Source: Candidatus Woesearchaeota archaeon (GTDB lineage: Archaea > Nanobdellota > Nanobdellia > Woesearchaeales > WAPY01). Taken from it: a DNA stretch of 64,000 nt. The position numbers were made by a program. Positions within the stretch are counted from its first letter, which is position 1; each line of letters starts with the position of its first letter. The DNA is taken from assembly GCA_049700835.1 (NCBI GenBank), contig JBNAUL010000002.1, forward strand, positions 272,275 through 336,274, in the 5' to 3' direction. Below, piece by piece: positions 60,001 to 63,000 of the stretch.

Positions 60001-63000
60001 TTTACAACAACAAAAACCTCTAAGTTCAATCTCTTGAATTCATCAGAAAAACTTTCTATAAGCTTCGCAAGTTTTTCGGCATTAAAGCCAACACCCTCTT
60101 CATAGTTTTTAAAATTTATTATCAGAAATTTTTTTTCTGCTTTTTTTCTCTTAATTTCTTTCATAATAAAAAATCTAATTATCTTTTTGTTTATAAATCT
60201 TTTTAAAAAACAAAATTTATAAATAAAAGAGAATTTTTGTTTTTTATGATAACATACGAGCCAGTAAGGGTGCTTTTTAGAATTTTTGGAATAAACATTT
60301 ATTCTTGGGGTTTTTTTGTGAGTTTTGGAATTCTTGTTGCATTGCTAGCAGCAAGAAAAACATATAAAAAAAAATTTGAAGAGATACTAAACTCTTTTTT
60401 AATAACATTCATTTTTTCAATAATTGGCGCAAGGATTGTTTATGTTTTGCTTAACATAAAACACTTTTACTATAAACCATTAGAGATATTAAACTTTCAA
60501 GGCGGAGGGCTTAGTTTTTTCGGAGCATTGTTCTTTGGGCTTTTAGGATTCATAATGTATTTTAAAATTAGAAAGATTGATTTTAGAGAATACCTTGACA
60601 TCTATGCTGTTTTCATACCACTAGTTCAAGCATTTGGAAGGATTGGTTGTTTTTTGAACGGGTGCTGTTATGGAAATGAGACAAAAATATTCTTTGGGAT
60701 AAAGTACTTAGGGGAAATTAGGCATCCTGCTCAGATATATGAGTCATTGCTCAATTTCATTTCATTCTTGTTCATTTACAAGATTAGAAATAAGGACGAA
60801 TTAAGAATAAAAAAAATCAGGATAAAATTCTTCAATGGAATATTGTTCTTAATCTATTTAATAAATTACAGCGCAATAAGGTTTCTTGTTGAGTTCTTCA
60901 GAGAAGAGCAGAGATTATTTTTAGGATTGACAAAAACTCAGTATTTGTGCTTGTTCATAATACTAACAAGCGGATTTATCATTTATAAAAATCAAAAGAA
61001 AGAGTTAGTTAAGAAAAAAATTAGGAAATAGAAATAGAATAAGGATTGCAAATAAAAATATAAAAAGATTTTAAAAATTTAGAATTAAAAACAAAAATGT
61101 TTAATAAAAATAAGAGGATGAAAGAAAAAAAGAAGAGCGTTGAGGAACTATTAAAAGAGATTCCTGTTTTTGAGTGTGGAGAAAAACTTGTTAATCTTAA
61201 AAACTATTCTAAAAACATAGTAATAAGTTTGGATCCTGAAATTATGGAAAGAGAAGGACTGCCAGAAGATGTATGCTATGTAAGAAAAGGAGTTGCTAAG
61301 AGGTTACTAAAAGCTCAAAGATTGTTGCCAAATGGCTTTAGATTGAAGATTCAAGAGGGCTACAGAACTCTTAAGACACAAAGAAAACTTTTCATCAGCC
61401 ACTATAAAATGCTGAGAAAAAAACATCCTAATTTGGACAACAACAAAATAAAGGAGATGACTGAAAGGTTTGTTGCTTCTGCTTTCAAGTATCCTCCTCA
61501 TGCCACAGGAGGAGCAGTAGATATTACAATTGTAGGCCCTGACAACAAGGAATTGGACATGGGAACAAAGGTCAATGAAACAAGCAAAGAGTCATACACA
61601 AACTCAAAAAGGATTTCCAAGGAAGCAAGAATGAACAGGAGATTGTTGATTAGGGTTATGAGAAAGGCAGGTTTTGTTAATTACTATGCAGAGTGGTGGC
61701 ACTGGTCTTACGGTGACAGGTATTGGGCTGCTGTTTCAAAGAAGAAAAGGGCAATCTATGGAATAATAAACATTGATGTCAAAAAGATATACGAGCACAA
61801 AAAGGTAATAAAGCCAAAAAGAAAAAATAAAAAGCGAAGAACAAAAAATAGGATAATTAAGATGAAACGATGAATGAGATAATAAGAAACGACAACATAA
61901 GGATTATTGAAGAATCCGTAAATGCTTTGAAGCAAGAGAACGCCATTAAACTTAAAGAGGTAAGTGACCACACAATACACAATGCAAGCATATTTCAAGA
62001 CGAGGACTCAATAACAATCGCTGTTCTGACATATGCACTCTCAAAAATACTAGAGAGAGGAATTGAAAACCGTTACTGGTTTGAAAAGAAACTTGAGTTT
62101 GCGAAAATCCAACTCATAAAGCAAAACATAGAGTTTTACAGGAAAATGATAAAGGAAATCTTCTCCCAGATAGCAAGAATTGACTCAAAACTCAAGATTT
62201 ATGTTCAGGAGGTTATTGAAAAGGCAAAGATAAAGAAAGGAGCAAAGCTCTACTATCACGGAATATCAATGGCAAGGACAGCTTCTGTGCTTGGAATAAC
62301 CCAGTGGGAACTCATGAACTACATAGGAAAGCTTGAAGAGCCGAGAACAGCTACTGCAAACATAAAGGGAAGAATATCATTTGCAAGGAAACTGTTCAAG
62401 CAAAAATAGCAAGCGGAATTAAAGCATTATTAAAACATTAAGAGGTTTAAAGCGAGGTTAATATTATTAAGAGCATAGAGCATTGAACAAAATCCAATGA
62501 TTAAAATTTTCAATGATTAAAATGTCAAGAACAATAATATTTGATTCAGGTCCTATAATAAGCTTAACTCTAAATAACCTGCTTTGGGTCTTGGAAGAAC
62601 TGAAAAAGGAATACAATGGAACATTTATAATACCTGAAAGCGTTAAAATAGAATTGATAGACAAGCCGTTTATGACTAAAAAATACAAGTTTGAAGCATT
62701 GCAGGTGATGAAGGAAATCTACAATGGAACCCTTAACATTGTAAAGAGTAGCATAATAAAAAACAGGACACAAGAAATTCTAAACATTGCAAACACTACA
62801 TTCAAAGCCCACAACTCTTTTGTTCAAATAGTGCAGGAAGGGGAGATAGAAGCAATCTCTGCATACAAGCATTTAAACGCAGAAGCGATTGTTATTGACG
62901 AGAGAACAACGAGAATGCTCATAGAGGAACCGCATGCTTTGAAAAAACTTATGGAATCAAGGCTTCACACAAACATAGAAGTAAACAAGGAAAATTTCAT

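Follow-up and report, generated by a model that had tools for sequence, protein, structure and literature searches.

The prolipoprotein diacylglyceryl transferase Lgt of E. coli (PDB 5AZB/5AZC, Pfam PF01790) combines a seven-helix fold with head and arm subdomains and is partnered with the signal peptidase LspA and lipobox-bearing substrates. Its residues Y26, H103 and N146 are essential, mutants at these positions being inactive (mBio 2026, PMC13251419, among other sources), and E151 is the residue that binds the PG head group. A Cys-rich subtype is already known in bacteria: N146C/E151C variants have been reported among 'more distantly related Lgt proteins', Leptospira interrogans Lgt, which has N146C, partially complements E. 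coli, and MSMEG_5408 of M. smegmatis (Y26H, N146C) is presumed to be of low activity (mBio 2026, PMC13251419). For archaea, homologues of Lgt, Lsp or Lnt are said not to exist in reviews and primary papers published between 2018 and 2026, as the genome-wide survey's note had said of the field. The discovery of AliA and AliB (arCOG02177/02178) in Haloferax volcanii, proposed to fulfil this role in an archaeon through thioether lipidation of the lipobox Cys, was framed on this premise. The authors of the AliA/AliB work noted that some archaea are predicted to have many lipoproteins while lacking AliA and AliB, and called for additional pathways. Their supplementary tables (Hong et al. 2025) list 12-60 predicted lipoproteins and neither AliA nor AliB for 7 out of 7 Woesearchaeota. 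In our literature search no paper reported either Lgt or LspA from DPANN archaea, and many of the matches to 'LGT' referred to lateral gene transfer. The novelty is that of a literature gap only, a caveat of the survey that holds, since NCBI already gives names to these proteins.

Our window, the whole stretch of 64,000 nucleotides analyzed here, belongs to a DPANN archaeon of the order Woesearchaeales and carries an lgt homologue at 60246..61031 on the plus strand. The open reading frame starts with ATG, with an in-frame TTG at 60237, and encodes 261 amino acids of a Cys-rich 'CC-type' with the motif GRIGCFLNGCCYG. It matched Pfam LGT (PF01790) with 182.8 bits (E 8.7e-54; gathering cut-off 24.9 bits) over profile positions 2-238 out of 240, and a phmmer search of the PDB found 5azb, the E. 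coli enzyme (E 8.1e-15), so that both the full length and the PDB match claimed before were reproduced. Two NCBIfam models stayed under their cut-offs: TIGR00544, an equivalog, reached 114.9 bits and fell 4 bits short of its cut-off of 118.9, and NF000778 gave 148.3 bits against a cut-off of 334. The AF2 model (pLDDT 96.4, pTM 0.90) shows the seven helices and the head and arm subdomains of the Lgt fold, and in a fold search of the PDB its sole match at E<=1e-3 was 5azb (E 1.1e-10, TMq 0.82), although sequence identity to the E. coli enzyme is 24%. The CC-type lgt is the only PF01790 gene in the window genome, and the same holds for G053 and G164, its two family-mates. TATA-like words upstream of lgt were given no weight, because the region before the gene is so AT-rich.

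The gene is transcribed divergently from that of an archaeal-type triosephosphate isomerase (TIM; 59442..60164, minus strand; NCBIfam NF003302, 195.5 bits, cut-off 132). A homologue of Peptidase_M15 and VanX-like D-Ala-D-Ala dipeptidases (61097..61873, plus strand; Pfam Peptidase_M15 71.7 bits, VanY 33.5 bits) follows 65 bases downstream on the same strand and was counted as a mere neighbour. The TIM-lgt pairing is kept in both family-mates (tblastn, loci L060 and L061), and tblastn gave no match for the Peptidase_M15 gene in these two loci. Bacterial contamination or a binning error would agree with the nearest sequences outside the lineage, which come from Dehalococcoidia, Omnitrophota and Eremiobacterota at about 30-40% identity. 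It is nevertheless extremely improbable given the setting of the gene. The 439-kb contig bears the ribosomal proteins L15e, S3Ae and L10e, Spt5-NGN and a TFIIB ribbon protein, together with diphthamide synthase, OapB/OapC and a Hel308-type helicase besides the TIM; this bears out the survey's placement of lgt amid archaeal housekeeping genes, here ribosomal, transcription and replication genes. The GC content is about 0.30-0.33 throughout and that of lgt matches its contig, the genome is estimated to be 98.66% complete with 0.25% contamination, the TIM-lgt pairing recurs in two relatives, and the single-contig genomes G016, G025, G085, G097 and G158 each have both LGT and LspA. Lgt and LspA are thus genuine, intact enzymes whose genes belong to the chromosome of the archaeon.

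In an alignment numbered after E. coli lgt (NC_000913), the window Lgt retains R143, G154, Y235, R239 and E243; of these, R143, Y235 and R239 occur without exception in the 66 aligned Lgts. It differs by the replacements Y26W, H103F, N146C, E151C and L152C and thus has W, F, C and C where the E. coli enzyme has Y26, H103, N146 and E151; the retained residues and the changes at 103, 146 and 151 are those listed by the survey. All key E. coli residues are present in 37 out of 37 other top-scoring archaeal Lgts, the canonical type of the Woesearchaeales, which shares with the window copy the Pfam family, the order, the partner LspA and the lipoprotein substrate family. Because the same replacements at Y26, H103, N146 and E151 are reported in bacterial Lgts too, they mark a subtype and leave membership in the Lgt family standing. 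CC-type proteins are the sole PF01790 match in 4 out of 5 bacterial genomes bearing them, and several Dehalococcoidia genomes have the CC-type as their only Lgt. In the archaeal genomes G237, G045, G131 and G204, extra CC-type copies occur alongside a canonical Lgt.

The tree placed window-type Lgts in a well-supported clade of their own, comprising 11 sequences and grouped with bacterial Lgts of the same subtype, whereas the canonical Woesearchaeales Lgts cluster with Proteobacteria and Nitrospiraceae. An AU test on a 43-row subset of the 112-row tree rejected a single archaeal clade (p 0.0016). The window Lgt shares its signature-motif replacements with the bacterial N146C/E151C Lgts and differs from them in being archaeal-encoded and in belonging to this separate clade. 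A related-locus search with the window Lgt protein returned 7 loci, all bacterial, a sample biased by the CC motif among the search patterns and uninformative on how common the subtype is. Archaeal Lgt is not uniform and comprises at least 3 motif subtypes, two of them with statistically separable origins. Judged from its sequence, the window copy is not the usual Lgt of the order Woesearchaeales, and this is the point new here. The lineage appears to have gained its CC-type Lgt independently of the E. coli-like, canonical enzyme that most of the order carries, the direction and number of the transfers being inferred.

The window genome has one LspA gene, at C1:491582-492097, on a contig other than that of lgt and without a shared operon. 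It matched Pfam Peptidase_A8 (MEROPS A8) with 83 bits and the S. aureus and P. aeruginosa enzymes 6ryo and 5dir at E 2.3e-8 and 1.2e-6. Aligned to 6ryo, both catalytic Asp motifs are kept (N-A-I-D-R and F-N-L-A-D), in agreement with the earlier description; the protein differs from the known enzymes in its low identity and a Lys-rich N-terminal extension. In our sample of 201 Woesearchaeales genomes, LGT was found in 189 (94%), Peptidase_A8 in 184 (92%) and both in 174. The wide spread noted by the survey is therefore confirmed for the Pfam family, but its wording that Lgt is the rule in the order cannot simply be carried over to the window gene: this is of a different subtype and, being of different origin from the canonical Lgt, does not directly inherit an order-wide rule. 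Both proteins were absent from the Lgt-negative genomes tested in other orders (5 out of 5) and from the 4 model archaea of the control set, the latter being the sample of other archaeal phyla. LspA was not found in the family-mate G053 (98% complete). Retention of Lgt and LspA at 94% and 92% in very small genomes argues for selection.

Putative substrates were sought with a lipobox scan based on our own ORF caller. It matched 11 out of 1031 N-termini in the window genome, compared with 4 out of 3361 internal-Met and 2 out of 1031 reversed controls. About 6-7 of the 11 are textbook cases, so that lipobox proteins do exceed chance as proposed, where at least 7 had been claimed. A strict pattern gave 5 out of 1034 (0.48%), a weak excess, with 2 out of 623 and 1 out of 573 in the Lgt-negative genomes G208 and G221. 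The family of the L188 lipoprotein (C3:11950-12882) has a lipobox Cys in 139 of its 150 best representatives, in all 3 copies of the window genome and in 16 out of 16 ORFs of 8 archaeal loci, including genomes with only a CC-type or a GDGGH-type Lgt. A fold search with this lipoprotein family yielded nothing beyond generic matches to Ig-like, adhesin and integrin-leg folds (TMq <=0.24), on which no function can be assigned. Among 151 genomes of the class, 135 have both the family and Lgt, 6 Lgt only, 2 the family only and 8 neither (8 discordant), these being related and not independent genomes in which the 8 lacking both span 5 families. None of the 8 Lgt-negative genomes from other orders has the family. 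Across the class, the distribution of these conserved lipobox lipoproteins follows that of Lgt.

We consider it probable that the window gene encodes a working Lgt of the bacterial family which, together with the single LspA, equips this DPANN archaeon with a lipoprotein pathway of bacterial style. Lipobox proteins exported by Sec would receive a lipid, a diacylglyceryl or archaeol-type group, on the conserved Cys through Lgt, and LspA would then remove the signal peptide ahead of the lipidated Cys. The N-terminus would not be acylated by the Lnt route because no Lnt is present (no TIGR00546 match in the window genome). Lnt is optional in monoderm bacteria. The survey had likewise read these genes as making lipoproteins via Lgt and LspA; the presence of both enzymes, their co-occurrence and the lipobox substrates uphold this reading, but the window copy itself is Cys-rich and lacks Y26, H103 and N146. 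These replacements and that of E151, the TIGR00544 score under its cut-off, the few strict lipobox proteins and the apparent lack of LspA in G053 are points against this explanation.

Alternatively, the Cys-rich Lgt might be a low-activity or re-purposed paralogue that works with a different donor or acceptor, a role put forward for spare bacterial copies, and lipobox proteins might be handled differently or stay unlipidated. The four replacements, at sites whose mutation inactivates the E. coli enzyme, the presumed weakness of MSMEG_5408, the CC-type extras next to canonical Lgts in four archaeal genomes and the scarcity of strict lipobox proteins are compatible with this. We nevertheless regard it as unlikely, as the CC-type gene is the sole PF01790 member in the window genome, both family-mates and 4 of the 5 CC-type bacterial genomes, LspA is still present in the window genome, the L188 family keeps its lipobox Cys there and in genomes with only non-canonical Lgts, and the Leptospira N146C Lgt complements E. 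coli in part. Much less plausible still is that an archaeal route, AliA-like or other, lipidates the lipobox proteins and that Lgt and LspA are dispensable imports. DPANN archaea have been reported to have AliA 'with some gaps', and one textbook lipobox protein occurs even in the Lgt-negative G221. However, AliA and AliB are missing from all seven Woesearchaeota in the Hong et al. 2025 Supplementary Data, dispensable imports would hardly be retained so widely in the very small genomes sampled, and the L188 family does not occur in any of the 8 Lgt-negative genomes from other orders.

The archaeon differs from E. coli in lacking Lnt and 5 out of 6 phospholipid-synthesis families tested, the exception being one UbiA-family protein. 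Because of this absence, the donor lipid is probably scavenged from a host or the surroundings; the survey's remark on the lack of obvious lipid synthesis was borne out to this extent and makes a scavenged donor plausible. Since E151 takes part in PG head-group selection in E. coli, an Lgt without it may use a different scavenged donor. A broader scenario can be offered tentatively, as possible rather than probable: most of the class would operate Lgt and LspA on lipids that it does not make itself, Lgt would have been imported from bacteria several times and swapped between subtypes, and in this hot-spring lineage the canonical enzyme would have been replaced by a Cys-rich Lgt without E151, which may use another scavenged donor, possibly an archaeal ether lipid of the host.

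The window adds that 'archaeal Lgt' comprises several subtypes and is not of one kind. The broader scenario, if true, would mean a bacterial enzyme family at work across the lipid divide. The class-wide Lgt/LspA pair raises the biochemical question of which lipid a bacterial-family transferase draws on when the cell itself produces none, and for the Woesearchaeota it is a concrete and testable candidate for the missing lipoprotein pathway.

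The ATG-initiated open reading frame at window position 60246-61031 (+; 261 aa, in-frame TTG at 60237) is a genuine gene. It matched the Pfam LGT family (PF01790) at 182.8 bits (E 8.7e-54; cut-off 24.9) over profile positions 2-238 of 240, and narrowly missed the NCBIfam lgt equivalog TIGR00544 (114.9 vs cut-off 118.9). Its sole PDB match by phmmer was E. coli Lgt (5azb, E 8.1e-15). The AlphaFold2 model, built on an alignment of 130 homologues (A1; pLDDT 96.4, pTM 0.90), predicts the Lgt fold, with 5azb as the only Foldseek match in the PDB at E<=1e-3 (E 1.1e-10, TMq 0.82). The full-length archaeal Lgt reported in the genome-wide survey's note was thus confirmed, as was an LspA with both catalytic Asp residues. 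The latter (172 aa, contig C1 491582-492097 of the same genome, G000) matched Peptidase_A8 at 83 bits as well as LspA of S. aureus (6ryo, 2.3e-8) and P. aeruginosa (5dir, 1.2e-6), and its N-A-I-D-R and F-N-L-A-D segments align with the two catalytic Asp motifs. G000 contained exactly one LGT and one Peptidase_A8 match, and no match to the Lnt model TIGR00546.

Contamination as the source of the lgt gene is untenable. A Pfam scan of 53 further window ORFs bore out the described setting amid archaeal housekeeping genes, including ribosomal L15e, S3Ae, L10e/L16 and L11, Spt5-NGN, TFIIB zinc ribbon, diphthamide synthase, OapB, OapC, archaeal helicase domain 4, NOG1, a wyosine enzyme and DTD2. The upstream neighbor on the opposite strand (59442-60164) encodes an archaeal-type TIM (NF003302, 195.5 bits), and this pairing was also present in G053 and G164, two genomes of the same family. 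GC content ranged over 0.30-0.36 along the window and 0.31-0.33 among the four contigs of the 1,071,587-base assembly (completeness 98.66%, contamination 0.25%).

Several other features were observed in this region. The gene 65 bases downstream of lgt (61097-61873, +) encodes a Peptidase_M15/VanX-like D-Ala-D-Ala dipeptidase homologue (71.7 bits), here an archaeal protein of a bacterial cell-wall type; neither G053 nor G164 showed it next to lgt. Two ORFs of about 197 aa, paralogous to each other and without Pfam match (58055-58651 and 58837-59427, +), begin with a short basic segment that leads into a hydrophobic helix (KKAGLEISTN..., KKGFELSTSF...), an arrangement resembling archaeal class III (pilin-type) signal peptides. 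A RuBisCO large subunit (14788-16110, +; 325 bits) is located near sugar-phosphate genes encoding two PGI-like SIS proteins, a ROK kinase and PGM/PMM. At 45732-50829, a protein of 1067 aa contains copper amine oxidase N-terminal-like repeats, and the adjoining protein of 624 aa weakly matched the Hint module. The side-by-side position of the origin-associated proteins OapB and OapC (3970-4843, +) hints at a replication origin close to the window start. The sole public run containing nearly all sampled words of 59400-62500 (share 0.99) is labelled a hot springs metagenome, which may merely be the source of the assembly.

In the order sample of 201 genomes, G000 among them, LGT was found in 189 genomes (146 of the 153 of high quality) and Peptidase_A8 in 184. 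Comparison of the two presence tables gave 174 genomes with both, 15 with LGT only, 10 with LspA only and 2 with neither. These counts include four unpublished genomes (G183, G132, G112, G121), all with both genes; without them the numbers were 185/197 and 180/197. Five single-contig genomes (G016, G025, G085, G097, G158) encode both proteins. In the phylum sample, 151 genomes apparently of one class, LGT occurred in 115 of the order's 117 genomes and in 26 of 34 from other orders, and LspA was missing in 5/5 tested of the 8 LGT-negative genomes of other orders. Neither LGT nor Peptidase_A8 matched in the control archaea M. jannaschii, H. volcanii, S. acidocaldarius and M. acetivorans. Hence, the claim that the two genes are the rule in the order holds for their presence, but the window's Lgt subtype differs from the order's usual one.

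As the survey's note had pointed out, published work denies archaea these enzymes. No homologue of SPII, Lgt or Lnt was stated to exist 'in any archaeal genome' (FEMS Microbiol Rev 2018, PMC6098224), and Lgt was called 'absent from archaea' on the basis of RefSeq genomes of February 2021 (mBio 2026, PMC13251419). The proteins AliA/AliB of the Haloferax volcanii route were described as analogues, not homologues, of Lgt (2026 preprint, 10.64898/2026.10.03.756221). In the Supplementary Data of Hong et al., lipoproteins are predicted at 12-60 per genome in 7/7 Woesearchaeota, making up 29-51% of the secreted proteins, with zero arCOG02177 and arCOG02178 (AliA/AliB), of which H. volcanii has one each; for genomes of exactly this kind, the authors call in their Discussion for further pathways. 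In the sections considered here, Castelle et al. 2021 (PMC8204110) make no reference to lipoproteins, signal peptidase or diacylglyceryl, and no paper reporting Lgt/LspA in DPANN was found in the literature outside subscription journals. NCBI and JGI already annotate these proteins. The window's Lgt is a genuine new representative of an established enzyme family, in a domain from which publications report it to be absent.

Key residues, numbered after E. coli lgt of NC_000913, divide the archaeal proteins. All 37 other top-scoring archaeal Lgts, a selection by Pfam score that favours canonical copies, keep Y26, H103, R143, N146, E151, G154, Y235, R239 and E243 (35/35 when the unpublished loci L010 and L027 are excluded), with the motif GRxGNFINGELxG. 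The window's protein has W, F, R, C, C, G, Y, R and E at these positions, with a third Cys at 152 (motif GRIGCFLNGCCYG), in agreement with the conserved and replaced residues named earlier. Among 20 lower-scoring archaeal matches, 7 were of this Cys-rich CC-type, found as sole copy in the family-mates G053 and G164 and as extra copies in G237, G045, G131 and G204 (two copies). Another 7 (L062, L063, L064, L067, L072, L073, L077) showed a third type, GRIGCILGDGGHVGK and variants, with N146C, E151G and His at 152; it is the only PF01790 match in G278 (L077), G148 (L064) and G020 (L062), and also occurs in G013, G254 and, in two copies, G082. Five were canonical-like with H103 replaced (G222, G235, G089, G114, G196) and one, the second copy of G135, was of an odd type. 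R143, Y235 and R239 were invariant in 66/66 aligned rows. A search seeded with the CC motif found the CC-type in 6 of 7 bacterial loci (Dehalococcoidia and other bacteria), and it was the only PF01790 match in 4 of 5 CC-bearing bacterial genomes.

The window's Lgt had 904 homologues at E<=1e-10. The closest three share 81, 74 and 71% identity, the last being named 'prolipoprotein diacylglyceryl transferase [Candidatus Woesearchaeota archaeon]' at NCBI, followed by five at 50-57%; the next named homologues, at about 40%, belong to Omnitrophota, the PVC group, Syntrophomonadaceae, Eremiobacterota, Bacillota and Dictyoglomaceae. For the canonical Lgt of G085, all named sequences among the best 120 of 7273 homologues were Woesearchaeota or 'archaeon'. 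In a tree of 112 rows (IQ-TREE, LG+C20, quick search, SH-aLRT support only), the window's Lgt fell into a clade of 11 (support 100) adjoining Dehalococcoidia and Eremiobacterota, though the support of 89 for this placement falls short of strong. A clade of 47 (support 98) holds the 42 canonical archaeal rows and, nested among them, five bacteria (Proteobacteria, Nitrospiraceae), but not Firmicutes, Deinococcus or Fusobacterium. Two further clades consist of archaea alone; a clade of 5 with this composition (support 99) is formed by the third subtype. Given the well-supported branches, the 'archaea' label must change at least 5 times; the tree is unrooted and thinly sampled in bacteria and does not fix donors or direction of transfer. 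Holding the window's clade together with 14 canonical archaeal rows cost 81.8 log-likelihood units (p-AU 0.0016) in an AU test on a 43-row subset, with the constrained group chosen after the first tree was seen. Separate origins of the window's clade and the canonical archaeal Lgts are supported. That archaeal Lgts form at least three subtypes, and that the origin of the window's subtype is statistically separable from the canonical one, is new here.

The CC-type has already been described in bacteria, and the functional evidence is mixed. [quoted passage not shown] 2016, PMC4728403). In contrast, E151A complements in the strain of the mBio 2026 authors (PMC13251419). The same paper notes Y, W or F at H103 in some species and, in more distant Lgts, N146 replaced by C and E151 by C or D; the N146C Lgt of Leptospira restored morphology of E. 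coli but viability only poorly, and low activity was presumed for M. smegmatis MSMEG_5408 (Y26H, N146C). The CC-type is the sole Lgt of G000, its two family-mates and four bacterial genomes, and orthologous lipoproteins retain the lipobox where a genome's only Lgt is non-canonical. This is indirect evidence that the CC-type may be functional.

Lipobox proteins, claimed to exceed chance in G000, did so in ORFs from a simple custom caller, with 11/1031 N-termini vs 4/3361 internal-Met and 2/1031 reversed controls. The lipobox patterns were PROSITE PS51257-like and G+LPP. With alternative starts allowed, loose and strict matches numbered 15/1034 (1.45%) and 5/1034 in G000, and 18/853 (2.1%) and 12/853 in G260 of another order, both with Lgt and LspA (by local HMMs in G260), vs 1/573 (0.17%) and 1/573 in G221 and 4/623 (0.64%) and 2/623 in G208, which have neither; the strict excess in G000 alone is weak, and this two-versus-two comparison is anecdotal. 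Three of the four matches in G208, a genome lacking both enzymes, lie on contig C5 (25,321 bases; L124, L157), which may be foreign or mobile DNA. G221, likewise without both, still carries one textbook lipobox signal peptide (…LLLLGILFMLSG directly before the Cys; C1 415810-417006, -). Only one of seven G000 candidates had a clear Pfam family, DJ-1/PfpI.

A stronger association came from three tandem lipobox paralogues of about 310 aa (contig C3 9684-12882 of G000; L186-L188, L193), including L188 (11950-12882). The family is modelled as all-beta and Ig-like/adhesin-like (pLDDT 94.7). At E<=1e-3, L188 has 1598 representative clusters; in 139 of the top 150 representatives the lipobox Cys lies among the initial 50 residues, and the remaining 11 are N-terminally truncated, fused, or have a variant box with a Cys close by. 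In alignment A2 this Cys is at least 90% conserved, next to six invariant Cys, and 16/16 family ORFs at 8 archaeal loci carry a lipobox. In the phylum sample the family occurred in 137/151 genomes, usually in 2-3 copies: 135 had both it and Lgt, 6 Lgt only, 2 the family only and 8 neither, the last spanning 5 families and thus few independent events. That a conserved lipoprotein family tracks Lgt across the class is new here.

The lack of obvious lipid synthesis noted before was upheld, as profile searches of G000 gave no match to PcrB/GGGPS, CDP-alcohol phosphatidyltransferase, CarS, PlsC-type acyltransferase or CdsA, and one UbiA-family match. The same inability to make phospholipids was described for Woesearchaeota generally (Huang et al. 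2021, PMC8421398), and some have been suggested as episymbionts of bacteria (Castelle et al. 2021). The five families without match at 98.66% completeness argue that the cell would be unable to make archaeal or bacterial phospholipids, so that the Lgt donor would have to be obtained from elsewhere.
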